DNA of 64,000 bases from a virus (IMGVR_UViG_3300047400_000324:11757-75756); one strand, 5' to 3'; counted from the stretch's first letter, positions 5,768 to 62,831 are shown. Made by a program: numbers and translations. Notes: generated by a model from the letters alone, not told the origin.

Positions 5768-5968
5768 TCAATACTTGCAATTTCTATAACTGAAAAAATC
5801 TTCTTCATCGTCAATATCCATAAGTCTGTCTACGTTTTTCGATCTAATCAAATTTCGCATACGTTTTTCGAATCGTTTCTGTTTACTCTGCATATGATTT
5901 ACACCATAATCATCGCCATAATCATCGTATTGAATACGGCGATCGTCTCTGCTTCTAGATTTTCCCAT
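5768..5968 (-). CDS. Hypothetical protein
   Basis: In-operon ORF; its start abuts the upstream stop. Confidence 0.6.
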   Translation of the reverse strand: MGKSRSRDDRRIQYDDYGDDYGVNHMQSKQKRFEKRMRNLIRSKNVDRLMDIDDEEDFFSYRNCKY

Positions 5969-6391
5969 TTAAATAAGCCCCGGAAATGCTTTATTGATGA
6001 TATCTTTTGTTACACCTGGATATGGCAAATTTTTGTCTTTCATGTGCAATAACAATTTTGCATCGTCTTTATCTACCGATTCTAACAATTCGATGAACAA
6101 AGATTCTCTACGAATTTGTTTCAAATTTGGATTTCCATTTTTTGTAAACAAATATAAACGTCTATATTCCGAATACAAAATATTTTGCTGATCCACCAAA
6201 TCGTTTTCTTTATAGGGCGGATTTCCTTCAGGCAGCTGCCACTCAATCGATGGATCGAGAGCACCTTTCAAAATACCACGAAGAACGTTGCTATCGTTTT
6301 GCCTAAGCCAACCAATACGCATTTTTTCGTCTTTTATTTCTGAAGCCTTTTTCAGTATTTCGCTTATACCAAGTTTCATTTTTTTACACAA
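5969..6391 (-). CDS. Conserved T4-like hypothetical protein
   Basis: W.LPEG.PPY and RE.LFI.LLE pattern typical of the gene following rnh in T4-like phages. Confidence 0.7.
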   Translation of the reverse strand: MCKKMKLGISEILKKASEIKDEKMRIGWLRQNDSNVLRGILKGALDPSIEWQLPEGNPPYKENDLVDQQNILYSEYRRLYLFTKNGNPNLKQIRRESLFIELLESVDKDDAKLLLHMKDKNLPYPGVTKDIINKAFPGLI

Positions 6392-7238
6392 AGTCTCCTA
6401 TATTTTCTGTGAGATTTCTTAGTCTATTAGCAATAAAATAGTTCAACAAGTTTGGACTTTTCTTATTTTCTTGATTATCAAAGCTTTCCATAACTTGAAG
6501 TTTGATTCTATTAGGTATTTGAGATAAATCGATAAGTGTTTTATTGCGAGTATAATTTCTAAAACATTCATGATCGAATTTACCAATCAAATTTGTATTC
6601 ATCAATGCATCCATTCGTTTTTTAGTGAGAGGCTTCTGTCTTTCGTTTATAACAAAACAATTGTCAGAAGACAAAACGTTTGGAATACCATCGCTTACGT
6701 CGCCCTTCAAAATATGTTCTTCCAAAAATTTATCAGGATCATTGCATTTTATATATTTCTTCAAAACCGGATTATATTGTGTTACATTTATGTATTTTTG
6801 AAGTTGTTGAAAATCTTTGTCTCCGCTTAGAATAAGAATTTTCTCCGAAGTATTTCCAAATTCTTCACAAAGAGTTCCAATGATATCGTCAGCTTCCGCC
6901 GATTCAATATCGATAATTCTATAAGGAAAGTTTTCCTTCAATTCAGAACGAATTTTGTTCAGACATTCGAAAATATCTTTCCAATTCAATTCGGATTCTG
7001 TCTGAGATTTCTTGCGATTTGCTTTATAATAAGGAAAGACATGCTTGCGCCAGTAATTTCTGTTGTCGCAGGCAATAATCAATTCACCGTATTCGTCGGC
7101 AAACTTAGTTTTATACATACGAATAGAATTCAATACCATATGTCTTACCATTGGTTCATCTATCCGAGCATTTGTATGATTTCCAAGTTGTGCCATAATA
7201 TTCGATAACATAACTTGTGAAAAATCGAGAATAATAAT
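6384..7238 (-). CDS. rnh: RNase H / 5'-3' exonuclease (T4 Rnh family); probable ATT start at 7238
   Basis: DNRNYWRK..FPYYKANRKK, AEADDIIG, ILSGDKDFQQL, GDVSDGIPN. The family N-terminus IILDFSQV lies upstream of the ATG at 7211. Confidence 0.93.
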   Translation of the reverse strand: MIILDFSQVMLSNIMAQLGNHTNARIDEPMVRHMVLNSIRMYKTKFADEYGELIIACDNRNYWRKHVFPYYKANRKKSQTESELNWKDIFECLNKIRSELKENFPYRIIDIESAEADDIIGTLCEEFGNTSEKILILSGDKDFQQLQKYINVTQYNPVLKKYIKCNDPDKFLEEHILKGDVSDGIPNVLSSDNCFVINERQKPLTKKRMDALMNTNLIGKFDHECFRNYTRNKTLIDLSQIPNRIKLQVMESFDNQENKKSPNLLNYFIANRLRNLTENIGDFV

Positions 7239-19087: not shown

Positions 19088-19765
19088 TTAATTCGCAAAA
19101 ACATCTTTGAGAAATGAAAAATTGTTTGAAAGTTGAGAAGCTGCGCTTACAGCAACTTCCCGATGTTCTTTTTGTGTTGATTTATCGCATCTGAGCATAC
19201 AATAGTGAATCCAGCTTCTTAGAGATCCATTCATATACATTCTCGATAAAGTCAAACCTTCTGGCAAAACAGTTCTTGCTTGTTCTTTAGCTATACCATT
19301 GGATATAGCCCATGCATATGCCTTTTTAGATACATTGATAGCATCCGTTTGAATTGCATTCCAATTCAATTGCAATTCTTTATCGTCTGTATCAAAACTG
19401 TTTTGCCGATTTTTTACATCCTGCAATCTAGCTTCTCGTAAAGTAAATCCAAGATCGTTTACTGGATCTGCATATCTTTGACTGAATTCCTGAAAACTAA
19501 AACTGCGATGTCGCAAAATCTGCCGAGCAATATCTCTAGTAGTATTAATTTCCATAACAACATTGACCATTTCGAAAATCGACCAATGATTGTTTTTAAT
19601 ACAATATTTCAAAAGCTTATCGGACGTTTGAGTATTCATTTGATTTGAAGGATTTGAAACCCTAGCACAATACGCAATAAAATCATTTGCATTCATTTGC
19701 TTATTTGTTATAGGGTCTACAATCAAAGGTTGGCTGATAGATATAATTTTAGCCATATTATTCAT
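19088..19765 (-). CDS. thyX: Flavin-dependent thymidylate synthase
   Basis: HWSIFE, RQILRHRSFSFQEFSQRY, ARTVLP, GSLRSWIHY, TQKEHR. Confidence 0.96.
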   Translation of the reverse strand: MNNMAKIISISQPLIVDPITNKQMNANDFIAYCARVSNPSNQMNTQTSDKLLKYCIKNNHWSIFEMVNVVMEINTTRDIARQILRHRSFSFQEFSQRYADPVNDLGFTLREARLQDVKNRQNSFDTDDKELQLNWNAIQTDAINVSKKAYAWAISNGIAKEQARTVLPEGLTLSRMYMNGSLRSWIHYCMLRCDKSTQKEHREVAVSAASQLSNNFSFLKDVFAN

Positions 19766-30765: not shown

Positions 30766-30969
30766 TTAGAAATAAGAATTTTTAGGTGGATTTAGAAAAA
30801 AACTTGGAGTCCATCCATCAAATCCAGATCCATTATTCAACGATGTCTTTAAAATTTGTGCATCCCATTCATCCTCGCATTGCATTATATTTTGTTCAGT
30901 ACGACTTTCAAAAATTTCATAGATATCGTTATCGTCCACATTTCGTTTAATCATATAATTCATTTTCAT
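30766..30969 (-). CDS. Conserved T4-like small protein
   Basis: LNNGSGFDGWTPSFF motif; located downstream of gene 41. Confidence 0.7.
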   Translation of the reverse strand: MKMNYMIKRNVDDNDIYEIFESRTEQNIMQCEDEWDAQILKTSLNNGSGFDGWTPSFFLNPPKNSYF

Positions 30970-30975
30970 TTTCTC

Positions 30976-32178
30976 CTATGCAAATCCTTCAAATTTCTTA
31001 GAAAATTTAGACCTATTTTGAAAAAATTCATTATCTCGTTGACCATATTCTGTTTTATCCATAATTGGAATGTCGTCCTGTATATTCTCCTGTTCTGTTT
31101 GATCTACATCGTATAATTTCATTTTCGATCTATCGATACCGATAACAAATCGGCGATTTTTAGATAAATCGCTGTATCTATTTTTAAGTTGTTTTACCAT
31201 AATTTGATTGAACGATTCTAACTGTTCATTGCTAATAAGAGCAAACATCAAATCGGCAGTCGCAGGTAATCCGAAACTTTCCGAAACATCTGTCAAAACG
31301 ACATCGGACGACGCATACCCACTTCTTGTTGTTTGTGTAGCTGTAACTATAGGAAGATCGTGTTCAACAGCTAAACCACGAAATTCTTCCGCAATAGCCT
31401 TTACATAAGTATAACTATTTACCGACGCGGTATATTTTACTCGGCTAGAAGCACAAATATTGAGATAATCGATATAAATGATATCTGGAATAAAATTCTT
31501 TTTCAATTTCAATTCATTCAATAAATGTCTGAAATTTGCTGCACCAGCAGTAGACGTTGGATATTCTTTGATAATAAGCTTACCAACAGTTTTCTTTTTT
31601 ACCCTATCGATTTTTTTCATGAAAGAATCTTTTGGAACGGTTTCAATTTCATCCAAAGACATATCCAATAGATTTGCATCGATACGTTCTGCAATTCTTT
31701 CTTCAGCCATTTCCATAGTAATATAAAGAACATTTTTACCATCAAGCAAATTGCTAGCGGCAAAATGACACATCGCAAGACTTTTCCCAACACCGGTATT
31801 ATGGCTTGAAATTCCATTAGTATAATATCTATGATTTTCATGTTCTACATTAATATCTACGATAGGAATTATATTGCCGGTATAACGAACAGCTCCCCTT
31901 TCAAATCCATTTTTTGTTAAAAAATTTGCATATTCAATTTTAGATAATTGTAGCGCGCTTATCCATCCATTATCAGTTTCAAATAAATGTTCTGCATTGC
32001 ATAATACAGATTCACTATTATTTTCCAACTGAAGGCTGTATTCTTCATAAATTCCCTTATCGATAAAGAAATTTACTCCTACCCATCCATCGGGAGAATC
32101 TACTTCAATTTCATAATTTTCTTCTAACATGGTTTTTATTTTACTGATAGGGATTTCAATTTCAGTCCAAATTTTCAT
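30976..32178 (-). CDS. 41: gp41 helicase C-terminal part fused to a 127-aa C-intein
   Basis: SD AGGAG before MKIWTE (32178). Intein blocks CNAEHLF and VDINVEHENHRYYTNGISSHN, then TGVGKS (rest of Walker A), YITMEMAEE, IYIDYLNI, ATQTTR, SESFGLPATAD. Confidence 0.92.
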   Translation of the reverse strand: MKIWTEIEIPISKIKTMLEENYEIEVDSPDGWVGVNFFIDKGIYEEYSLQLENNSESVLCNAEHLFETDNGWISALQLSKIEYANFLTKNGFERGAVRYTGNIIPIVDINVEHENHRYYTNGISSHNTGVGKSLAMCHFAASNLLDGKNVLYITMEMAEERIAERIDANLLDMSLDEIETVPKDSFMKKIDRVKKKTVGKLIIKEYPTSTAGAANFRHLLNELKLKKNFIPDIIYIDYLNICASSRVKYTASVNSYTYVKAIAEEFRGLAVEHDLPIVTATQTTRSGYASSDVVLTDVSESFGLPATADLMFALISNEQLESFNQIMVKQLKNRYSDLSKNRRFVIGIDRSKMKLYDVDQTEQENIQDDIPIMDKTEYGQRDNEFFQNRSKFSKKFEGFA

Positions 32179-35057: not shown

Positions 35058-37583
35058 CTATCCAAAGAAAGATTCTAATGTATTTGTTTTTTCTAAACTC
35101 CAATCTATAACTTCTACTATAGATTGAATTGGATCTACAAATGCTTTTTGAAATTGCAATTCTTTGTTTATACAATGGTCTAAATTGAATTCTGTCGGCA
35201 GAGAATCCAATATAGTTATAACGTTTTCACGCAATGGATTTGGCATTGACAGATATGCAAATTTAACTTTATCGCCGTCGCCAATCATTTGATATTGATT
35301 ATGTAAATTTTTCTTATCAATCATGTTATTGTATAATAGAGCACCGCGAACATGAATTGGTGTGCCTTTGGCATATATATTATGTTTGTCTTTATATTTA
35401 TTCATACCTTTCATACCACGAGGAAAGGCTATATCCAAAAAAGACATTTTCATAAATTCTGTTTTAAAATCTGCTATATATTTTTGAAACGTTTCTTCAT
35501 CTTCGTTCATAATTATTTTAAGCGATTTTTTAATTGCGTCTCTGCACGATTTTGGTGTAGAAGACCTAACCGCTTCAATACCCATGATTTTCAATTGTGG
35601 TTCTGAAAATCTTACTCCTTCGATATCCAAGGCGTTTAGAATATACATCTTTCTTGCTTTCCAAATGCCTTTATTCGCTATAGTTTCACGTTTCATGAAC
35701 ATCTTTTGCTGATAAGCATGCATATATTCAGATAAATCTGTATAAGACCGATTTATCATATTTTGAATTTTTGTGCTGCAAAATTTATCAAGGCAATCGA
35801 CGATATTGGATATATTTGTTTTATCGTTTGCATCGATGCCAAGACGTTTAACCAATGGTTCCATATTGATATAAACAGAATCTGTATCGGATGCAATAAC
35901 ATAATCCAAATCTTTTGTTTTCAAAAGATCGTTGAAATATCGATTGAATTCTTTTTCAATCCAACGAATTGACAATTGACCAGACATAGTTATAGCTTCA
36001 GCCAAATCAAAGTCGAACCATCGAAAATATTCATTTGCCAACGCGCCGTATGCCGAATTCAATTGTATCTTTTTTGCTAATTGAAGATTGTGATATTTTG
36101 CAATATCGTTTGAAACTAGGCGTCTTTGTTCGATTTCTTCCTCTGGAATTGTTTCAAGTTTTTTCTTAACATCAAGCATTTTCTGTTTATAAACAGATCG
36201 ATCATTATAAAATTTTTCCATCAATGCTGGAAGAAAACCTTGTTTTTCTCTGTTGAAAATTACACCGTTTGCAGCGCGTATCAGTCCATCGTTTTCTATT
36301 TCAAATCTTTTTTCCAAAAGAGAATCGATTGATGGAAAAGTTTCTGAACGACTTATTTTCGTTTCCGGCGATATATTATATTGCATGATCAAATGTGGAT
36401 AGAGAGAGGTCAAATCAAAAGAAACTACCCAATTTGTCAATCCAACTTTTACATCTTTCACATATCCACCAACAAGTGAATTATTGAAATTTTTCTTTTT
36501 GAATTGAGGAATAACAATACATCTATCCAACAAGAAATTGTGTATAATCACATCCCAAGGTCTAACAGTTGTCATTGTATCGTTATAATTTACTTTTGCA
36601 TCATATGCAAAAACAATTACTTGTTCGATAAATTTTAGTTTTTGTTCAAGCATATCGATAAGTGTAACGTCATGGATGTTATAATCAATAAACAAATCAT
36701 GATTTTTCTTATAAAGATCATCGAGCGATTTATAACCAGAAGAAGAATAATCTACTTTCTTTTCTCCAAGTTCTTTTTCAGCAATCGCATCCAATTTATA
36801 AGATTCTTGTTGTTCGAATTTGAATTTTTTATAAAGATGCAAATAATCTAAAATATTGATACCTGCTGGAATAAAAGTTTGACAATCTTTGTCGTGTATA
36901 TTGACAGTTCTTTCTTCCAAGAATCCCCATGGAGACAATTTGTTTGCTTCATGATTTCCAAGAACATTACGAATTCTGTTGACAATATAAGGCAAATCGA
37001 AAAATTCGATATTCCAACCTGTCAATATATCTGGCATGTATCTGCCAGATTGCCATATTTTAATAAAATTATTGAGAAGATGCCATTCATCTGCACATTT
37101 TATATAATTCACTTTATCCGATTTTACTGTATATTCTCCCATGCCAAGAACCACTTTCTCGCCTTTGCGAGACATAGTAATAGCAGTAATTTCTTTATCG
37201 GCTTTTTCTATATCGGGAAAACCATCGTCCGATCTAGTTTCAATATCCAATGAAATAACATTGATTCTATCGACATCATAATTCATTTCCGGAAATTTAT
37301 CTCTAATATAAACATAATGAAATAAATTGAATCCAAAGATTTCAACATTCGATACATCGCTGTATTGTTTGATAAAATCTTTAGCTTCATGAATGTTATC
37401 GAAATCTATTTTATCTACTGGGTATCCATCGAGAGTTCGATAACGTGTATCCGTTTTACCGGTAGATTTTATAAAAAGATATGGCTTATAATCTACGGTT
37501 TCATTCACTCTTCTACCATCTTTATAACCACGATAGTATATTTTATTTCCACGCGTAAAAACGTTTGTATAAAATTCAGACAT
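35058..37583 (-). CDS. 43: Family B DNA polymerase gp43
   Basis: Exonuclease motifs DIET, GWNIEFFD, YNIHD; polymerase motifs SFDLTSLYP, KIQLNSAYG, SDTDS. Confidence 0.98.
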   Translation of the reverse strand: MSEFYTNVFTRGNKIYYRGYKDGRRVNETVDYKPYLFIKSTGKTDTRYRTLDGYPVDKIDFDNIHEAKDFIKQYSDVSNVEIFGFNLFHYVYIRDKFPEMNYDVDRINVISLDIETRSDDGFPDIEKADKEITAITMSRKGEKVVLGMGEYTVKSDKVNYIKCADEWHLLNNFIKIWQSGRYMPDILTGWNIEFFDLPYIVNRIRNVLGNHEANKLSPWGFLEERTVNIHDKDCQTFIPAGINILDYLHLYKKFKFEQQESYKLDAIAEKELGEKKVDYSSSGYKSLDDLYKKNHDLFIDYNIHDVTLIDMLEQKLKFIEQVIVFAYDAKVNYNDTMTTVRPWDVIIHNFLLDRCIVIPQFKKKNFNNSLVGGYVKDVKVGLTNWVVSFDLTSLYPHLIMQYNISPETKISRSETFPSIDSLLEKRFEIENDGLIRAANGVIFNREKQGFLPALMEKFYNDRSVYKQKMLDVKKKLETIPEEEIEQRRLVSNDIAKYHNLQLAKKIQLNSAYGALANEYFRWFDFDLAEAITMSGQLSIRWIEKEFNRYFNDLLKTKDLDYVIASDTDSVYINMEPLVKRLGIDANDKTNISNIVDCLDKFCSTKIQNMINRSYTDLSEYMHAYQQKMFMKRETIANKGIWKARKMYILNALDIEGVRFSEPQLKIMGIEAVRSSTPKSCRDAIKKSLKIIMNEDEETFQKYIADFKTEFMKMSFLDIAFPRGMKGMNKYKDKHNIYAKGTPIHVRGALLYNNMIDKKNLHNQYQMIGDGDKVKFAYLSMPNPLRENVITILDSLPTEFNLDHCINKELQFQKAFVDPIQSIVEVIDWSLEKTNTLESFFG

Positions 37584-54727: not shown

Positions 54728-55206
54728 TTTTATTGAAACACACAGATAAAAATTTAAATCAAGTTTCAGAAAATTTCAATTTCAAAGAACCGCCGTTCGA
54801 TCCTATAGAATTTTCACAAGAACTTGTAAAATTTATGTATGATAATAATGGAATATGTTTAGCAGCTCCGCAAGTGGGCATTCCACTCAGAATATTTGCT
54901 ATGCGTGGTTCACCACAAAATTTTGTTGTGTTCAATCCAAAAGTTATTATGCCTAGTAAGGATGAAGTCAGATTGGAAGAAACTTCTATGACTTATCCTG
55001 GTCTTATTATTCCAGTAAAAAGATCGCAACATTGCCGTGTTAGATTTGCAACACCCAATGGTGAAGTTAGAACCGAAACATTTACGGGAATGACGGCACG
55101 CGCTTTTCTACAATCGATGGATTTTTTGGATGGAAAAAAATTCTATGCAAATTCGAATCCAATACATCGTGAAAGAGCTTTCCGGAAATGGAATAAAAAG
55201 AATTGA
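54724..55206 (+). CDS. def: Peptide deformylase homolog with degenerate active site
   Basis: GICLAAPQVG; EETSMTYPG in place of EGCLS; QSMDF in place of HEXDH. Confidence 0.8.
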   Translation: MILLKHTDKNLNQVSENFNFKEPPFDPIEFSQELVKFMYDNNGICLAAPQVGIPLRIFAMRGSPQNFVVFNPKVIMPSKDEVRLEETSMTYPGLIIPVKRSQHCRVRFATPNGEVRTETFTGMTARAFLQSMDFLDGKKFYANSNPIHRERAFRKWNKKN

Positions 55207-55230
55207 CAATTCTATTATACAGTGTATAAT
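55203..55230 (+). promoter_or_regulatory. Sigma70-like promoter
   Basis: TTGACA-N16-TATAAT. Confidence 0.7.
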
Positions 55231-55256: not shown

Positions 55257-55796
55257 TTGAATATCTTTTATTTGTCTCATTCCCCTGTGGAATCGGCACA
55301 ATGGATGGTGGATCGACATGTTGTGAAGATGATTTTGGAATCTGCACAATTATTGTCCACTGCACATAGATATTTGGATGGCGTAGAATTTGTTGGTAAA
55401 AGCAAAACTGGACGTAAAAAAACCAGCTGGGTATTGAAAGATGAACGTGAAACAGTTTTGTATGAAGCAACTCATATCAATCATCCTTCTGCCGTTTGGG
55501 TAAGAAAATCTGTAGAAAATTATTTGTGGCTTGTAGAACATTTTCACGCGCTAGGAAAAGAATACACATATCGATATGGTAAAACACATAAATGTTTTAC
55601 TTCAAATTTAAGTTATATGTTGTCTTCACCGCCTAATAATTTGCGAGAATATAATATGACTCTTATGCCGTCTGCTATGGCAGATGAATATAAAATCGGT
55701 ATCAGCCCGATTGAAAACTATCGCAATTATTATAAAAATGGCAAAAAGCACTTACATAGTTGGAAAAATCGTCAACCACCTGATTGGATTAGTTGA
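55257..55796 (+). CDS. Pyrimidine-dimer DNA glycosylase/endonuclease V-like protein
   Basis: MNIFYL...D.HVVKMILESAQLLSTAH, THINHPSAVW, YR.YY...K, W..R..PDW. Confidence 0.8.
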   Translation: MNIFYLSHSPVESAQWMVDRHVVKMILESAQLLSTAHRYLDGVEFVGKSKTGRKKTSWVLKDERETVLYEATHINHPSAVWVRKSVENYLWLVEHFHALGKEYTYRYGKTHKCFTSNLSYMLSSPPNNLREYNMTLMPSAMADEYKIGISPIENYRNYYKNGKKHLHSWKNRQPPDWIS

Positions 55797-55842
55797 CAAT
55801 TATGAGTTTACAATATAATATATGCTGACAATACAATAAATT

Positions 55843-56265
55843 ATGGAGAACAATATGTCAAATGATTGGCCGTATGATATCAATAAAATGCATGAGCATT
55901 ATAAAATATATAATGCTATATCTAAGCTTACCGAAGATAAAGAAAAGCTTCATGCTTTATTGCAATTTCGTATTTCATTTCTTAATGAAGAATTGAATGA
56001 ACTTAAAGATGCTACAAATGCTGAAGATGTTGTAGATGCTTTGATAGATTTGTGTGTTGTGGCCATTGGTACTTTGGATATTTTCGGCATCGATCCGTAT
56101 AAAGCTTGGGATGAAGTTCTTAAGGCTAATATGAATAAAACGCCAGGGGTAAACCCGTCGCGTCCAAATCCTTTAAATCTACCTGACTTAATTAAACCTG
56201 CAGGTTGGTCTGCACCTTCTCATGCCGAAAACCATGGAAATCTTGGAATCATTTTCAATGTCTAA
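55843..56265 (+). CDS. MazG-like all-alpha NTP pyrophosphohydrolase (candidate dCTPase)
   Basis: FLNEELNELKDA, VDALIDL.VVAIGTL, AWDEV.KANM.K, DLIKP.GW..P. Confidence 0.8.
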   Translation: MENNMSNDWPYDINKMHEHYKIYNAISKLTEDKEKLHALLQFRISFLNEELNELKDATNAEDVVDALIDLCVVAIGTLDIFGIDPYKAWDEVLKANMNKTPGVNPSRPNPLNLPDLIKPAGWSAPSHAENHGNLGIIFNV

Positions 56266-56854
56266 AGCATATAAACTTGATGATCTTATTTCTTCCCTTA
56301 AAGGCACGTGCATAGAAATCGATTCTAACGATTATAGAGACGAAATTGATATGCAAGTCGATACAAATTATGTACGGGAAATTAAAAAGTGTGAAAAACC
56401 ACGTTCTAAAGACGAAATATGGAAACATACAGTTGCTGGGTTTTGCGCTGAGAAATCTTTACAAATTATTAATGGGTCACTTGAATCGTATTCCCCCATC
56501 ACAAAAAACGCTGAAGGGCTTTCCTTTTTAAACCGACAAACCGATTTGTTGTACGGAAATACCCAAATTGCAGTTAAATCCAAGTCAAAAAAATATCCGA
56601 TGTTTTATTTGTCTCACAGCCAAATAAGTTCTATAAACCATTTAATTCCACATAATGAGTATATGATTGCTGTAGAATATGTAAATTCTGATCTTAATAA
56701 AAGTGTGTATAAATATAACCCTTTATTTATTGCTAAAACCAAACATATTGTTAAATATATTACTCCGCTTTTTGGCCGCTCCACTAAATGGAGCGGCCAT
56801 CATCTCAATTATCAATTAGGAATTGAAAAAAATGAATTCATCGATCTTAGATAA
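56222..56854 (+). CDS. Hypothetical protein, weak PD-(D/E)xK-like motif
   Basis: AEK...TDLLY..TQIAVKSK; lies inside the DNA-modification operon. Confidence 0.45.
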   Translation: MPKTMEILESFSMSKAYKLDDLISSLKGTCIEIDSNDYRDEIDMQVDTNYVREIKKCEKPRSKDEIWKHTVAGFCAEKSLQIINGSLESYSPITKNAEGLSFLNRQTDLLYGNTQIAVKSKSKKYPMFYLSHSQISSINHLIPHNEYMIAVEYVNSDLNKSVYKYNPLFIAKTKHIVKYITPLFGRSTKWSGHHLNYQLGIEKNEFIDLR

Positions 56855-57203
56855 CAATAATGAACCAATGTCGATTGAAGTGCTCCGTGAATGTATAGAG
56901 TTACAACTTAAGAAATCTCGCGACTATCAAAATCCAACATCTGCTGTTAAACAAGCAGATTATTATCCAAACGGTTGTTTGACGATTCATGATATTATGC
57001 ATACTAAAATGCTTCGGTTGAAGTCCGTCATGGAAGCTTTGCAAAATGATACGGCTTATAAACCAAATTTTGAATCTTTAGAAGATTCGGCAAAAGACCT
57101 GATCAACTATGCCAGTTTTTTTGTATCATATCTTCGTGGCAAAATAGACGGGCAAAGCCAAACGCATGATCTTTTCAATAAGGCCAACAATGAAACAAAA
57201 TAA
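56823..57203 (+). CDS. Nucleotide-modification-associated domain 1 (Nmad1/DUF1599-like) protein
   Basis: LQLKKSRDY, I.DIM..KMLRL, ESLEDS.KDLINYASF. Confidence 0.75.
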   Translation: MKKMNSSILDNNNEPMSIEVLRECIELQLKKSRDYQNPTSAVKQADYYPNGCLTIHDIMHTKMLRLKSVMEALQNDTAYKPNFESLEDSAKDLINYASFFVSYLRGKIDGQSQTHDLFNKANNETK

Positions 57204-57843
57204 AGTATCAGATATTCGTCAGGAATTTCTAAATTTAAAACACAATGAAGAATATATCATTGATAAAACTGGGGTAAAAACTCTTGAAATAATAAATGCA
57301 AATTTTATTGCAGACGAAGATACTATATTTGGACAGGTAAATCAAAACTACATTGAACGTGAAATTCAATGGTATAAATCTATGTCACTAAATGTTAATG
57401 ATATTCCAGGAAACACACCTACAATCTGGAAACAAGTTGCTGATGAAAATGGATATATCAATTCAAATTATGGATGGTGTATCTGGGCTGCAGAAAATAA
57501 AAATCAATATAATAATGTTTTGCAAGAATTGCAAAAAAATATTTTTTCAAGACGCGCTATTATGATTTACACTAGACCCAATATGTGGTATGATTATAAT
57601 CTAAATGGCCGTTCTGATTTTATGTGTACTAATACGGTTCAATATGTTGTTAGAAATAATAAATTGCATTGTATTGTGCAGATGAGAAGCAATGATGCTT
57701 GGGCTGGTTATCGTAATGATCGTTCATGGCAATTGTATGTTCTTAACATGTTAGCATCAGATCTTAATATAGAAGCTGGAAATATATATTGGAATTGTGG
57801 TTCTTTGCATTTCTATGCAAAACAATTTGATCTCATACAGTGA
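57166..57843 (+). CDS. 42: dCMP hydroxymethylase gp42
   Basis: Closely matches T4 gp42: DKTGVKT.EI..A.F.ADE, YI.RE..WYKS.SL, INSNYGW.IW, SRR..MIYTRP.M, DFMCTNTVQY, MRSND...G.RND, WN.GSLH.Y. Likely start MKQNK at 57190. Confidence 0.93.
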   Translation: MIFSIRPTMKQNKVSDIRQEFLNLKHNEEYIIDKTGVKTLEIINANFIADEDTIFGQVNQNYIEREIQWYKSMSLNVNDIPGNTPTIWKQVADENGYINSNYGWCIWAAENKNQYNNVLQELQKNIFSRRAIMIYTRPNMWYDYNLNGRSDFMCTNTVQYVVRNNKLHCIVQMRSNDAWAGYRNDRSWQLYVLNMLASDLNIEAGNIYWNCGSLHFYAKQFDLIQ

Positions 57844-57855
57844 ATGATATAAATT

Positions 57856-58311
57856 ATGTCAATTGATAATTTATCAACGAAATGGACAATCAATTATCTT
57901 GGTTTAGCAAAACATATTGCTGAATGGTCTAAAGATCCTTCTACTAAATGTGGGGCAATTGCAATTGGAAAACATATGCAGATTTTATCTGTTGGATTTA
58001 ATGGATTTCCAAGAAAAATAGAAGATACTGCCGAAAGACTGAATGATCGTCCTACAAAATATTCTTTAATGGTTCATGCTGAAATGAACTGTATATATAA
58101 TGCTACGCTCAATGGCATTAGTTTAGACGATGCAACTATGTTTGTTTATGGATTGCCTGTATGTTCAGAATGTGCAAAAGGTATAATTCAATCAGGCATA
58201 AAAAAAATTGTTGCTAGTTATCCTCCTATTATATCTGATAAATGGAGAGAAATGGGTCAACTTACAAGTCAAATGTTTGAAGAATGTGGTATTGAATATT
58301 ATAGTTTATAA
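57856..58311 (+). CDS. cd: dCMP deaminase
   Basis: SKDPSTKCGA, GFNGFP, HAEMN, PVCSEC. Confidence 0.92.
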   Translation: MSIDNLSTKWTINYLGLAKHIAEWSKDPSTKCGAIAIGKHMQILSVGFNGFPRKIEDTAERLNDRPTKYSLMVHAEMNCIYNATLNGISLDDATMFVYGLPVCSECAKGIIQSGIKKIVASYPPIISDKWREMGQLTSQMFEECGIEYYSL

Positions 58312-59568
58312 TTGAAAGATTTAATAATGGATAAAAAAATAGCTATTATTCTTGGGCGCGGTGTCGAAGGGTGTGGAGTAACAAAAAATGCTATTGAATT
58401 CAATAAATTTTATAAAAATTCATGCATATTTGCAACAGTTGATAAGATTTGGGGCCGTCACAATTCTATGAAATTTGAATATGTTGGATTCAAATGTTCA
58501 GATTTACAATCTGTCAATGATTTAATACATAATATAAATTCAAATTTTGATATTGTTATTTTTTATTCTATTCCTTCAATTAAACACGAAACATCGTGTA
58601 TTAAAAATTTTCTCCATTTAATAGATTCTATTAAATTGCCGAAAACAATGATACAAGTAGATCATAATAATGCATCGCTTCAACGAAATGCAAATTTAAT
58701 AGAAGTATGCAATATGATGGATCAATTATTGACGCATTCTTTAAACGGCGCATTTGCAAATTGGTGTTATTCAAATTCAATCCAAACACCGTTGAATACT
58801 ATGGGAGTAGGATTCAATTATGATTTACATCGTAGCATATGGTGGAAACCAATAGAAGAACAAGATGATCGTCATATAAAATGGATTGGCAGGTGTGCAG
58901 TATGGAAAGGGCCAGTTGAATTAATCAATTTTCACAATGAATGTTTGCGCAAACATTCATTTATTACTACGCTTGAAGGCTTAGAAGCTTCATTAGCATC
59001 TACTATTATAACACATATAAATGGAGATAAAGAAAAACCGCGGGATGTGAATGAATATATTCGTAGCGGAAGACATAAATTAGCACATAATTTATATGGT
59101 AAGGAAAAATATGGAGATGCTCCATGGCTTTACCCCAGTTATATTAATTTAGAATGCATGGAAAGATTGAGTCGTTGCGCGTTTGGTTCTGATTTATATA
59201 ATCTTAAAAAGGAGTATTATGGCAACAATATAGAATATTGCCACGCTGAAGTAATTGCGTCTGGTGCTGTACCTATTTTCCATAAACATTTTGGTGATAA
59301 TGTCATACATAGAAAAACTGGAATTCCATGCACTAAAACATTTTCTGGAACTATATGGTATGATCCAAATAATTTAGAATATACTACCAAGTATATTCTA
59401 AAACTTGCAAAGGATCGTGTAGCAAGGGATGAGTGGCGTGAAACAGCATATGAATTTTGGAAAGAGCATTCTGATGCCAGTATAATCAATAACGATATAT
59501 TGCAAAAATCTTTATCAGCAACACCAAATATTAGAAATCGTTCTTTTGGCATTGAAAGATTCATTTAA
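58312..59568 (+). CDS. agt: DNA alpha-glucosyltransferase (T4 Agt-like)
   Basis: GRGVEGCGVTK (T4 ARGLEGCGVTK), DH, WIGR...WKG, EGLE, Y.N.E..ER.S...FG, EY.H.E...G..P.F.K, RE.AYEF. Confidence 0.88.
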   Translation: MKDLIMDKKIAIILGRGVEGCGVTKNAIEFNKFYKNSCIFATVDKIWGRHNSMKFEYVGFKCSDLQSVNDLIHNINSNFDIVIFYSIPSIKHETSCIKNFLHLIDSIKLPKTMIQVDHNNASLQRNANLIEVCNMMDQLLTHSLNGAFANWCYSNSIQTPLNTMGVGFNYDLHRSIWWKPIEEQDDRHIKWIGRCAVWKGPVELINFHNECLRKHSFITTLEGLEASLASTIITHINGDKEKPRDVNEYIRSGRHKLAHNLYGKEKYGDAPWLYPSYINLECMERLSRCAFGSDLYNLKKEYYGNNIEYCHAEVIASGAVPIFHKHFGDNVIHRKTGIPCTKTFSGTIWYDPNNLEYTTKYILKLAKDRVARDEWRETAYEFWKEHSDASIINNDILQKSLSATPNIRNRSFGIERFI

Positions 59569-60761
59569 TGAAACACGCATCTATCATTCCGCTCATTGGC
59601 GGTGAAACTATCGGTTGTGAATATGCATTTGGGTCTCCGCCAGATTATTTTTTATCGTATGAACCATTTCAATCCAATGATCAACATATTTTAAATTATT
59701 ATAATAAAGAAATACCATATTATTTGCTTGATAAAAATCAAAAATATCCATATAAAGTAGATGTTATTTCAACCGTGTGTCCGTGCGCGGGTTTATCACA
59801 ACTTTCTACGATTGCCGGTGAAAATAATATTGCAAATCGATGGTTATTGGATACTACAAAATTTGTTCTCGAAGAAATGAAACCAATAGTTTTTTGGGGT
59901 GAAAACGCGCCGGGTTTAGCTGGAACAATAGGTAAAGGCATCCGTGATAAACTTTATGCAACAGCTATCGATTGCGGTTATAGTATGACTTTATATCGAA
60001 CGCGTTCTTTGCTGCATGGAGTCCCGCAGATAAGAGAAAGAACTTTTTATTTCTTTTGGCGTGGAAATAAAGTTCCTTTGATAAACTATTTTTCGCGCAA
60101 ACATACACCTATAGAAACTGTTATATGTGAATCTCGTGGAAATACTCAGCAAGAAACTATAAATAAAAATACTCCATCTAAAGATCCGTATTATCGATAT
60201 ATTTTAGAAGTTCTTTTTGACGGAATAACCCATTCAAAATTTTCTGAAATTATAGAACCAAGGGCTGCGGGTGGAAACGATACGCTTTCATATATAGAAA
60301 AACAAAACATTTCATATGCACAACTATCTGATTGGATGCAAATGCATGGCTATGATAAAGAAGCAGCGGCATGCATAAGAAGATATAATAAACTTAATGA
60401 TGGAAAACAGATAATGCGTCGTGGCATTATTGTACCAAAAGATTATATTGGTGCATTTGTTGGGCATCATCCATATTCAGTAACACATCCCATTGAAGAT
60501 AGATTTATTACATACCGTGAAGCTATGACAATAATGGGTTTGCCTGATAATTTTGAATTGATTGAACCAAGAAAAAACGTGAATCATATTTGTCAAAATG
60601 TTCCCGTGCAAACCGCAACGGATATGGCTAATGAAGTTTTAGCATATTTAAACGATAAAAGAACTATGATAGATAGCAGAATGATTTTTCAATATAATCA
60701 ACAAAGGAAAGAAAATATTATAAACACTAATAATGGAACACTTGAGATTTTTTTTAATTGA
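59568..60761 (+). CDS. C5-cytosine methyltransferase-fold protein with atypical motif I
   Basis: CPCAGLS (IV), GENAPGL (VI), QIRERTF (VIII), RFITYREAM.IMGLP (IX), QNVP (X); motif I reads SIIPLIGG. Confidence 0.8.
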   Translation: MKHASIIPLIGGETIGCEYAFGSPPDYFLSYEPFQSNDQHILNYYNKEIPYYLLDKNQKYPYKVDVISTVCPCAGLSQLSTIAGENNIANRWLLDTTKFVLEEMKPIVFWGENAPGLAGTIGKGIRDKLYATAIDCGYSMTLYRTRSLLHGVPQIRERTFYFFWRGNKVPLINYFSRKHTPIETVICESRGNTQQETINKNTPSKDPYYRYILEVLFDGITHSKFSEIIEPRAAGGNDTLSYIEKQNISYAQLSDWMQMHGYDKEAAACIRRYNKLNDGKQIMRRGIIVPKDYIGAFVGHHPYSVTHPIEDRFITYREAMTIMGLPDNFELIEPRKNVNHICQNVPVQTATDMANEVLAYLNDKRTMIDSRMIFQYNQQRKENIINTNNGTLEIFFN

Positions 60762-61203
60762 AAGGTATTATATTATGGCTAATACAGTAAAAGAATATTT
60801 GGATAATCCAAATGGGTTTGATTCTATGATAAAAGATACAAGTTATATTACAAATACTGGAAATATCACCGTTTCAAATAATGTCTGGGGAGTTATTACA
60901 AATACACAGAAGATAAATTTCAACCGAGAAAATATAGGTTTTAAATATAACGAAGATACTATTCTAGATGAAGTATATAAATATATTTGTAGCACATATG
61001 GCGGATATTACGGAAATACCGTTCAAGCACAAGATTTGATCGTTGAATCAGGTCATGCTGAAGGTTTTTATATCGGAAATGTTATTAAATATTCTTCACG
61101 ATATGGAAAGAAAGATGGTTATAATAAAAAAGATTTAATGAAAGTAATTCATTACGCTATATTGGCTCTCAATAATCACAATTTACAACATGAAAAGGTA
61201 TAA
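60733..61203 (+). CDS. DUF3310-like protein
   Basis: FKYNED.ILDEV..YI.STY, GFYIGNVIKYSSRYGKKDG...KDLMKVIHYA. Confidence 0.7.
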   Translation: MEHLRFFLIERYYIMANTVKEYLDNPNGFDSMIKDTSYITNTGNITVSNNVWGVITNTQKINFNRENIGFKYNEDTILDEVYKYICSTYGGYYGNTVQAQDLIVESGHAEGFYIGNVIKYSSRYGKKDGYNKKDLMKVIHYAILALNNHNLQHEKV

Positions 61204-61206
61204 ATT

Positions 61207-62055
61207 ATGGAAATAAATATTTCTGTTGAAGAACTTAGAAAGCGAAAATTATTTCTTGCTGTTCCGATGTATGGCGGACAATGCCACGGAATGTTTGCAA
61301 AATCAGTTGCGGATTTGACTTCTATTTGCACAAGTTATGGTATAGAACTTAGATCGTATTTTTTATTCAATGAATCTTTGATTACACGCGCTAGAAATTA
61401 CTGTGTTGATGAATTCATGCGTTCCGATATGACGCATATGATGTTTATCGATTCAGATATTGGTTTCGATCCGCGAGACGTTTTGGCTCTTTTGTCATTG
61501 CAATCGGACGATTCCGAATACGATGTCATTGCTGGACCTTATCCAAAGAAGTGTATTTCATGGGAAAAGATCAAGTTGGCAGTAGATAAGGGTATTGCCG
61601 ATGAAGATCCAAATGTTCTTGAAAAGTTTGTAGGAGATTTTGTATTCAATCCTAAAAGCGGCGGCGGTCAAATTCGTATAGATGTTCCAGTAGAGGTTTC
61701 TGAAGTTGGAACAGGATTTATGATGACACGAAGGAGCACATTTGAAAAATTCGCTTCAGCATATCCTCAATATAGTTATAAGCCGGATCATGTTAGAACA
61801 GAACAATTCGATGGTTCACGCGAAATTATGCAATACTTTCAAGCAGAAATCGATCCAGAATCCAAGCGTTATCTTTCCGAGGACTATTGGTTTTGCAGGA
61901 AGACTATCGATATTGGTGGAAGAATTTGGTATTGCCCGTGGATGAAAATTCAGCATTGCGGCTCATACATTTTTGGTGGATCACTAATCGATCTGGCATC
62001 AATTGGAGCTCCTGCAACAGCCGATCCATCAATGTTCAAAAAGCCTAAGTCATAA
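61207..62055 (+). CDS. GT-A fold glycosyltransferase
   Basis: LAVPMYGG, ESLITRARN, MFIDSD (DxD), GTGFMM, LSEDYWFC. Confidence 0.82.
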   Translation: MEINISVEELRKRKLFLAVPMYGGQCHGMFAKSVADLTSICTSYGIELRSYFLFNESLITRARNYCVDEFMRSDMTHMMFIDSDIGFDPRDVLALLSLQSDDSEYDVIAGPYPKKCISWEKIKLAVDKGIADEDPNVLEKFVGDFVFNPKSGGGQIRIDVPVEVSEVGTGFMMTRRSTFEKFASAYPQYSYKPDHVRTEQFDGSREIMQYFQAEIDPESKRYLSEDYWFCRKTIDIGGRIWYCPWMKIQHCGSYIFGGSLIDLASIGAPATADPSMFKKPKS

Positions 62056-62122: not shown

Positions 62123-62797
62123 ATGAAAATTTCATCTGAAACTTTGGATGTTTTGAAGAATTTTTCTTCCATCAATCTTTCTATTTTTGTGAAGCCTGGA
62201 AATATTCTTCGAACTATTTCGCCAACAAAGTCGGTATTTGCTGTAGCGGAAATTCCTGATACATTTGAAAAGCCATTTGGGATTTATAATCTAAGTCAAT
62301 TCTTGGCATGTCTTTCTATGTTTGAAAATCCCATTGTAGATTTTCAAGACGATATGTCTATCATCAGAGATGAAACAACAGATCGAGAATTGGATTATTA
62401 TTATTGCGATGAAAGCACAATTTTGCATGCGCCAGAAACATTGAAAATGCCGGCAATCGATGTGGAATTCGATTTGAAGGGAAATGATTTGGCTAATGCA
62501 TTGAAAGCAATGGGAGTTCTTGGTCTTCCTGAGATTGCAATTGTTGGCGATGGCAATACAATCATGATTGAAGCTTTCAACAGCAAAACTACAAATTCAA
62601 CCACAAAGTCTAATACTTATCGTGTAAAAGTTGGTAATACCGATAAGGTTTTTCGTGCTGTCTTTAGATGCGAAAATCTAAAGATGCCATCTATCGATCA
62701 TCATGTCAGTGTTTCTTCGAAGGGAATCGCACAATTCAAGGGCCCCCTTGTTACTTATTATGTTACTGTTGAAGCGAATTCCTCTAGTTGGGGATAA
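62123..62797 (+). CDS. 45: Sliding clamp gp45
   Basis: MKIS.ETL.VLKNFSSIN..I.VK.G, FGIYNLSQFL, YYV..E. Confidence 0.93.
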   Translation: MKISSETLDVLKNFSSINLSIFVKPGNILRTISPTKSVFAVAEIPDTFEKPFGIYNLSQFLACLSMFENPIVDFQDDMSIIRDETTDRELDYYYCDESTILHAPETLKMPAIDVEFDLKGNDLANALKAMGVLGLPEIAIVGDGNTIMIEAFNSKTTNSTTKSNTYRVKVGNTDKVFRAVFRCENLKMPSIDHHVSVSSKGIAQFKGPLVTYYVTVEANSSSWG

Positions 62798-62803
62798 GCT
62801 ATG

Positions 62804-62831
62804 AGGGAGAGAATATTCTCTCCCTTTTTTT
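62804..62831 (+). terminator. Palindromic terminator-like hairpin
   Basis: agggagagaat|attctctccct followed by a T run. Confidence 0.65.

Follow-up and report, generated by a model that had tools for sequence, protein, structure and literature searches.

In the T-even pathway to glucosylated 5-hydroxymethylcytosine (hmC), gp42 makes 5-hydroxymethyl-dCMP (hm-dCMP), gp56 removes dCTP and the alpha- and beta-glucosyltransferases (alpha-gt and beta-gt) glucosylate hmC, with gp1 and cd as further components. In the phage clusters that combine genes for a cytosine C5-methyltransferase (C5-MTase), a 5mYOX/TET enzyme and a glycosyltransferase (GT), the methylase makes 5-methylcytosine (5mC), which TET oxidises and which ends as glycosylated 5hmC (PMC8256090; bioRxiv 10.1101/2023.12.21.572611). 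CmoX of Synechococcus phage S-B43 is a DNA cytosine C5-carboxymethyltransferase with a changed cofactor pocket (PMC12783734, PDB 8yf3), and some phage ThyA homologues make 5-hydroxy-dCMP (5ho-dCMP), for which Asn at the position of E. coli ThyA D169 is diagnostic (PMC13326640). Here we analysed a 64,000-nucleotide stretch of viral DNA (IMGVR_UViG_3300047400_000324:11757-75756; hereafter, the window), which makes up the final 64 kb of a 75.7-kb virus record in IMG/VR (the contig) that is ~46% complete. The carrier is an uncultured aquatic T4-like phage. We read positions 55843-60761 as a T4-type glucosyl-hmC module that occupies a variable slot in the replication-gene backbone and includes a probably clamp-tethered C5-MTase-like enzyme, an assignment made by sequence comparison, to which we give a probability of roughly 0.72.

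The nine genes at 55843-62055 are contiguous plus-strand open reading frames (ORFs), whose neighbours overlap or lie 0-12 bp apart:

55843..56265, plus strand: MazG-like all-alpha nucleoside triphosphate pyrophosphohydrolase (PF01503, 9.6e-9; phrog_671, 3.8e-19)
56258..56854, plus strand: protein of 198 amino acids (aa) with no family (ORF open from 56222; recorded product from the second ATG, 56258)
56823..57203, plus strand: Nmad1-like small helical protein (nucleotide-modification-associated domain 1; weak match to PF07659/DUF1599, E 0.024)
57166..57843, plus strand: dCMP hydroxymethylase of the T4 gp42 type (PDB 1b49, E 1.5e-78, residues 16-224; PF00303, 2.2e-19)
57856..58311, plus strand: dCMP deaminase of the T4 cd type (PF00383, 4.3e-16; phrog_174, 1.1e-38)
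58312..59568, plus strand: DNA alpha-glucosyltransferase homologue, Agt, GT-B fold (PF11440, 5e-37; PDB 1y6f, 2.2e-48, residues 9-391)
59568..60761, plus strand: C5-MTase-fold enzyme at the fixed 3' end of the hmC module (PF00145, 1.2e-19; Foldseek)
60733..61203, plus strand: DUF3310 protein (PF11753, 2.2e-8; possible true start, ATG at 60775)
61207..62055, plus strand: GT-A-fold glycosyltransferase of 282 aa (Arg63, DSD at 82-84, ED at 225-226)

The MazG-like, ThyA-fold, dCMP deaminase, Agt, C5-methylase and DUF3310 calls passed the Pfam cut-offs. All of the gene families that a sequence-only reading of this region had named were found where it had placed them, as was the contiguous plus strand up to gene 45. 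From 51951 to the window end, this strand carries gp47, gp46, a peptide-deformylase-like gene (pdf), a DenV-like gene, these nine genes, gene 45, gene 44 and the start of gene 62. Judged from gene content, the hmC module proper is 55843-60761, namely the MazG-like gene, a variable small protein, the Nmad1-like gene, gp42, the dCMP deaminase, Agt and the C5-MTase-like gene. As in the T-even pathway, this module has a gp42 orthologue with the same active-site residues, a cd-type deaminase and a full-length Agt, and is set among replication genes 47-46-45-44-62.

The motifs SDFMCTN and YRNDRSW of the window gp42 align with SDFMCTN and FRNDYAW of T4 gp42, and both proteins have the catalytic Cys together with Asp at the positions of E. 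coli ThyA L143, D169 and N177. An Asp at the N177 position, which confers dCMP specificity, and an acidic residue at the L143 position are the criteria for dCMP-type enzymes (PMC13326640). The motif MRSND, with its Asp at the D169 position, is present in the window gp42 and in the relatives L007, L010 and phage XG4. The clusters of RB69 and DLP3 for 5-hydroxy-dCMP synthase and arabinosyl-5-hydroxycytosine (PMC13326640) resemble this locus in their ThyA homologue with Asp at N177 and an acid at L143, and in DNA GTs and sugar-nucleotide genes that vary between relatives, but their D169N change is absent from the window protein and its relatives (RSND). Given the Asp at this diagnostic position, we rejected 5-hydroxycytosine in place of hmC, and the ThyA-fold protein is predicted to make 5-hm-dCMP, not 5ho-dCMP. 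In addition, the window encodes a separate thymidylate synthase, so that the ThyA-fold gene is not needed for dTMP synthesis:

19127..19696 (contig 30883-31452), minus strand: ThyX flavin-dependent thymidylate synthase (PF02511, 2.9e-41)

Agt matched PF11440 with 128 bits (cut-off 25) over profile positions 1-354 of 355, and T4 Agt from end to end with 33% identity. From this homology to the T4 enzyme, it is predicted to glucosylate hmC in DNA in the alpha linkage. No match to the T4 beta-glucosyltransferase (Bgt; PF09198) was found on the contig, but the controls were silent too, so that this is weak evidence. The T4-style pathway of hydroxymethylation and alpha-glucosylation, as proposed by the sequence-only reading, was thus upheld by the gp42 match with its diagnostic residues and by the end-to-end Agt.

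We then asked how the C5-MTase-like gene is distributed, using its profile for a reverse survey of 80 IMG/VR loci, 38 of which had at least 5 kb upstream. gp42 was present in 37 of these 38, indicating that the C5-MTase-like gene belongs to the hmC module. The family has 2391 homologues at E <= 0.001 and at least 571 confirmed stretches in IMG/VR. In cultured phages, homologues (~30% identical) were found only in TIM5-like cyanophages and Pseudoalteromonas phage XG4. The TIM5-like cyanophages have matches to Agt as well, and their ThyA homologue has Asp at the N177 position; because of this residue, S-TIM5 gp076 (L001 3766-4602), which is annotated as a thymidylate synthase, probably acts on dCMP. 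In XG4, the C5-MTase-like gene lies in a cluster without annotation (L002 100-6580), after genes for an hm-type ThyA homologue, a sugar nucleotidyltransferase and a GT-B enzyme; the cluster also has an unknown gene. In the literature that we searched, this methylase-like family is not described for gp42 modules. The locus resembles the C5-MTase and TET clusters in having a C5-MTase-fold gene beside a DNA GT, whereas here hmC would come from gp42 before replication, the methylase motifs are non-canonical and TET/JBP was not found on the contig (no PF12851 match; the controls were silent too, making this weak evidence).

The sugar genes of the module are less constant. An Agt-like gene was found in 17 of the 38 loci with at least 5 kb upstream, and relatives have 1.1 to 4.5 kb between the deaminase and C5-MTase-like genes, a stretch in which sugar and GT genes are swapped. 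In the close relatives L007, L008 and L009 (5018-7997), Agt is replaced by a 377-aa protein without a Pfam family, an NAD-dependent epimerase/dehydratase and a UDP-glucose/GDP-mannose-dehydrogenase-like gene. Since these loci retain the hm-type gp42 (RSND) and the C5-MTase-like gene alongside other sugar genes, their hmC probably bears a different sugar.

The C5-MTase-like protein ends in NNGTLEIFFN, the window's own family B polymerase in TNTLESFFG and T4 gp43 in KASLDFLFG. The polymerase tail of T4 and RB69 is reportedly the classic gp45-binding peptide. The polymerase that provides the reference tail in the window is encoded as follows:

35058..37583, minus strand: family B DNA polymerase, gp43 (PF00136 inside an 841-aa frame; reference tail TNTLESFFG)

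In the structural model of the C5-MTase-like protein, the TLEIFFN tail follows a low-confidence linker. The tail motif occurs in three of the 119 window ORFs of at least 80 aa (the polymerase, Agt and the C5-MTase-like protein), compared with ~0.06 expected by chance, a statistic that is indicative only, because the pattern was defined after the tails had been seen. The Agt C-terminus, GIERFI, bears a weaker resemblance to a clamp tail. Among the fetched loci, a loose form of the motif fits 45 of 51 distinct tails of the C5-MTase-like family and 17 of 41 tails of the adjacent upstream GTs, which fall into several unrelated size classes, while the GT-A and DUF3310 proteins have no clamp-type tail. 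Taken together, the C5-MTase-like enzyme is probably tethered to the gp45 replication clamp via its TLEIFFN tail. As a separate observation on the upstream GTs, proteins of 355-469 aa encoded 5' of the C5-MTase-like gene end in (S/T/N)LE(A/S/D)F(F/L), for example in L106, L112, L113, L124, L129, L133, L162 and L168, and the T4-Agt-like proteins of 410-418 aa are mostly without this tail.

The sequence-only reading had also counted the DUF3310 and GT-A genes as members of the hmC operon, and had named a second sugar via the GT-A enzyme as an example of what the phage might add; glucosyl-hmC would then become a di-glycosylated base. The GT-A gene is adjacent to the module and probably co-transcribed with it. 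In addition, phage GT-A-fold enzymes that glycosylate 5hmC in DNA exist, and the window GT-A has an Arg, DxD and ED-Y/F signature like the one described for them (bioRxiv 10.1101/2023.12.21.572611). However, the neighbourhoods of relatives, the very place where this reading had proposed to look, speak against it. A set of 80 IMG/VR loci, retrieved with the GT-A profile, was searched with every window protein; 25 of them span pdf to GT-A, of which five have hmC genes and 20 do not, and DUF3310 and GT-A are retained in the latter. Among cultured phages, the GT-A homologue closest to the window protein is that of Stenotrophomonas phage DLP_6 (68%); next come those of Caulobacter phage Cr30 (60%) and then of Ochrobactrum, Sinorhizobium and Rhizobium phages. 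In DLP_6 and Cr30, GT-A follows gp47-gp46-pdf and precedes gene 45; hmC genes are absent in between, and neither these two phages nor the 20 spanning loci have gp42, Agt or a C5-MTase-like gene in the interval.

The conservation of GT-A also differs from that of the module. GT-A is the best conserved protein of the region (81-90% identical in relatives, versus 38-60% for gp44, gp45 and gp46 and 55-67% for the module proteins) and, being better conserved than the clamp and clamp loader, seems to be under unusually strong constraint. Among the loci with the nearest GT-A relatives (81-87%), L012 and L014 have no module, and the module proteins of L094 are only 62-67% identical. The interval from DenV to DUF3310 is a variable slot, which is filled by 5-6 kb of other cargo in some relatives that lack the hmC module. 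Such cargo lies at ~2100-8000 in L044 and ~4200-9400 in L053, and the slot behaves like a hot spot for swaps of gene sets.

Pfam gave no match for the GT-A protein. A profile built from 36 relatives matched STIV A197 at 1.7e-4 with the DxD aligned, and D82 and D84 are invariant. Foldseek with the AlphaFold2 (AF2) model, whose predicted local distance difference test score (pLDDT) is 93, returned A197 (2.4e-9) as well as LH3, ColGalT1, mimivirus R699, Mnn9 and ppGalNAc-T domains. The phage enzyme thus shares the GT-A fold and the DxD with the A197, LH3, ColGalT1 and R699 domains, its best profile and structure matches, but is only 9-16% identical to such domains and is a conserved T4-like backbone gene beside gene 45. 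The best structural matches (A197, LH3, ColGalT1, R699 and Mnn9) are protein or glycan transferases. Some distant GT-A relatives are fused to a second GT domain of the collagen-lysyl (PLOD) type at the N-terminus (PF25342; P0369, P0380) or to a class I methyltransferase domain, Methyltransf_24, at the C-terminus (PF13578; P0363); these fusions hint that the acceptor is a glycan or a protein and not DNA. Many GT-A homologues are 500-1100 aa long and split by one or two LAGLIDADG inteins (P0245, P0248, P0251, P0253, P0276, P0339, P0381). As for the DUF3310 protein, the T7 gp1.7 nucleotide kinase carries PF11753 at 4.5e-23, and BLASTP between the two gave 36% identity over 55 C-terminal residues (E 6e-6), with no similarity across the whole kinase. 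Since GT-A and DUF3310 are kept before gene 45 without hmC genes, a second sugar added by GT-A is unsupported and, in our judgement, highly improbable. By their neighbourhoods, both are conserved backbone genes outside the hmC pathway. Of the additions to the T4 pathway that the sequence-only reading had proposed, the gp42-linked C5-MTase-fold enzyme, which T4 does not have, is upheld as a component, and an undescribed final base would be conceivable only through this enzyme.

We next considered what the C5-MTase-like enzyme may do. Its model (pLDDT 85) has the DNA C5-methyltransferase fold, and Foldseek returned M.HaeIII, M.HhaI and DNMT1 (E 1e-13 to 1e-12) and, among the structural matches, CmoX (PDB 8yf3). 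The catalytic motifs VCPC (IV), GENAP (VI) and QIRER (VIII) are present and invariant in 20 homologues; across the family, Cys73, the Glu of ENA, QxRxR, the QNVP of the motif IX/X region and Asp55 at the adenine-binding position are invariant. The family can be recognised by the signature IPLxGG / xC(A/S)GLS / ENAP / QNVP, usually with an LExF(F/L) clamp-type tail. One possibility is that the protein is an ordinary DNA C5 methyltransferase that uses S-adenosylmethionine (SAM) on cytosine left unmodified in nascent phage DNA, in which case virion DNA would contain glucosyl-hmC and a little 5mC but no new base. Consistent with this, the Pfam score (71.3 bits) is above the cut-off of 22, the catalytic Cys, the Glu of ENx and QxRxR are intact, and Asn344 occupies the position of M.HhaI N304, where CmoX has Arg. 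Furthermore, the N-terminal motifs do not vary even among homologues of 30% identity, arguing for a real cofactor site.

The details of that site fit this possibility less well. Motif I is IPLIGG instead of FxGxGG, unchanged even in homologues of 30% identity; relative to M.HhaI, F18 is replaced by I and G20 by L, and the canonical SAM-binding FxGxG is thus absent. The acid of motif II is not conserved and its position varies. The score against NCBIfam TIGR00675 (dcm) is 33.7 bits, compared with a cut-off of 100.65, and the hidden Markov model (HMM) alignments begin at residues 55-63, leaving motifs I-III and residues 1-55 unaligned by any HMM. PCQ is changed to PCA and ENV to ENA. One engineered M.HhaI change that widens the pocket is Q82A. 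The strict linkage to gp42 is also hard to explain for an ordinary methylase, and we consider this possibility doubtful.

Another possibility is that the enzyme performs new chemistry on hmC: it would attack C6 and then exchange or extend the 5-hydroxymethyl group, or hydroxymethylate leftover cytosine without SAM, so that an undescribed base would result. The only linkage of the gene, in three divergent lineages, is to hmC modules; the clamp-type tail would place the enzyme on nascent hmC DNA; and the pocket around the transferred group is remodelled. C5-MTases are said to exchange or derivatise groups on hmC in vitro without SAM. CmoX provides a phage precedent for a repurposed C5-MTase fold (PMC12783734). 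Where CmoX has SPPC, however, the window protein has VCPC, and at the position of M.HhaI N304 it has Asn344 in place of the Arg350 of CmoX, so that we rejected carboxymethylation of the CmoX type; CmoA (TIGR00740) had no match on the ~46% complete contig. No conserved adjacent partner that could supply a donor was found, and neither CmoA nor TET/JBP on the contig, and the argument proceeds from motifs throughout, leaving new hmC chemistry somewhat unlikely. Tentatively, then, the family as a whole may be coupled to replication and may act by undescribed chemistry on hmC or on escaped cytosines in nascent DNA.

The MazG-like gene accompanies gp42 in relatives and is fixed at the module head, and from this position we infer that it removes dCTP, as T4 gp56 does. 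Its best PDB match is the MazG-like DR2231 (4e-4). T4 gp56 itself was not among the tblastn matches of the MazG-like protein, and we therefore discarded the identification as a gp56 orthologue. phrog_18404 (1.5e-13) spans both the MazG-like and the Nmad1-like proteins. The latter is 55-77% identical in module-bearing relatives, in which the weak PF07659 match was found again. Compared with the T-even pathway, a MazG/PRA-PH-type hydrolase and an Nmad1-like partner stand in for gp56 here, ThyX is present instead of Td, the C5-MTase-like gene is extra, and no orthologue of gp56, gp1 or Bgt was found on the contig. A search for the T4 gp1 dNMP kinase gave no match on the contig or in three partial relatives, but these records are only 30-47% complete, so that the result is uninformative.

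The 198-aa protein between the MazG-like and Nmad1-like genes has no Pfam, PHROG or NCBIfam family; its homologue search returned only itself, and tblastn against phages found nothing further. Its sole detectable relative is a 32%-identical ORF in L054, and its slot holds different small proteins among relatives. The recorded start at 56258 removes most of the overlap with the MazG-like gene. T4 endonuclease IV (DenB) came up as an ESM Atlas lead (feature score 0.91, template modelling (TM) score 0.65), which was not confirmed by BLASTP (E 16) or hhalign (probability 1.3%). As for the deaminase, L011 has an HNH_3 endonuclease gene between gp42 and a shortened deaminase ORF of 107 aa (5816-6696), and in the sister contig L010 the deaminase is intact (166 aa) and an HNH gene is absent; L011 looks like a recent homing-endonuclease insertion.

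In the mechanism that we propose for the glucosyl-hmC module, gp42 would, by homology, convert dCMP to hm-dCMP, and the deaminase would convert dCMP to dUMP and so feed ThyX. The MazG-like protein, perhaps together with the Nmad1-like protein, would clear dCTP in the manner of T4 gp56, and some kinase would phosphorylate hm-dCMP. After incorporation, Agt, again by homology, would put glucose on the hmC in DNA. DNA-modifying enzymes would be recruited to clamps on new DNA, and the C5-MTase-like enzyme, tethered to gp45 and with its Cys, Glu and Arg intact, would act on newly replicated phage DNA, where it could methylate or hydroxymethylate the rare cytosines that escape replacement, or derivatise hmC itself.

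Several points weigh against this interpretation. On the ~46% complete contig, our searches found neither a gp1-type dNMP kinase nor an orthologue of Bgt or gp56, and full replacement of cytosine is accordingly assumed rather than shown. The clamp tail is missing from the XG4 and S-TIM5 homologues of the C5-MTase-like protein, and the count of tails in the window has the post hoc character noted above. The retention of Asp55 and Asn344 may be compatible with ordinary SAM use by the C5-MTase-like enzyme. Lastly, the boundary after 60761 probably does not coincide with a transcriptional one: because the genes are tightly packed and no terminator precedes gene 45, DUF3310 and GT-A are probably co-transcribed with the hmC module. 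The signals and the remaining genes that flank the nine are:

55203-55230, 5' of the DenV-like gene: sigma-70 consensus TTGACA-16-TATAAT, 12/12 matches
55257-55796, plus strand: DenV-like pyrimidine-dimer glycosylase gene (phrog_624; PF03013, Pyr_excise, in the relative L010)
55793..55821, plus strand, just 5' of the MazG-like gene: sigma-70-like (early-type) promoter TTGACA-17-TAATAT, 10/12 consensus matches
62123..62797, plus strand: gene 45 sliding clamp (PF09116, 6.6e-16; phrog_223, 1.1e-65)
62803..62826, plus strand, after gene 45: intrinsic-terminator-like hairpin, a 10-bp stem followed by a T run

The hairpin 3' of gene 45 is the sole strong terminator. Sigma-70-like sites were not more numerous in the region than in shuffled controls, and the site at 55793-55821 is a consensus match only. 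A megablast search of the region against phage records gave no match.

Glucosylation of hmC is textbook phage counter-defence, of which new sugar variants keep appearing, and the locus alone adds little to this. What it does is to delimit the module, separating the neighbours that belong to it from those that do not, and to isolate a conserved virus-borne enzyme without a place in the described pathways, one with a C5-methylase fold where the C5 of the DNA should be occupied. The C5-MTase-like family is common in metagenomes and also occurs in two groups of cultured phages, so that its role is open to direct experiment. Should the enzyme edit hmC, or clear stray cytosines at the replication fork, this would be a new step of DNA hypermodification and possibly a tool enzyme, and many abundant aquatic T4-like phages, the TIM5-like cyanophages and XG4 would carry a new base or a modification-proofreading step.

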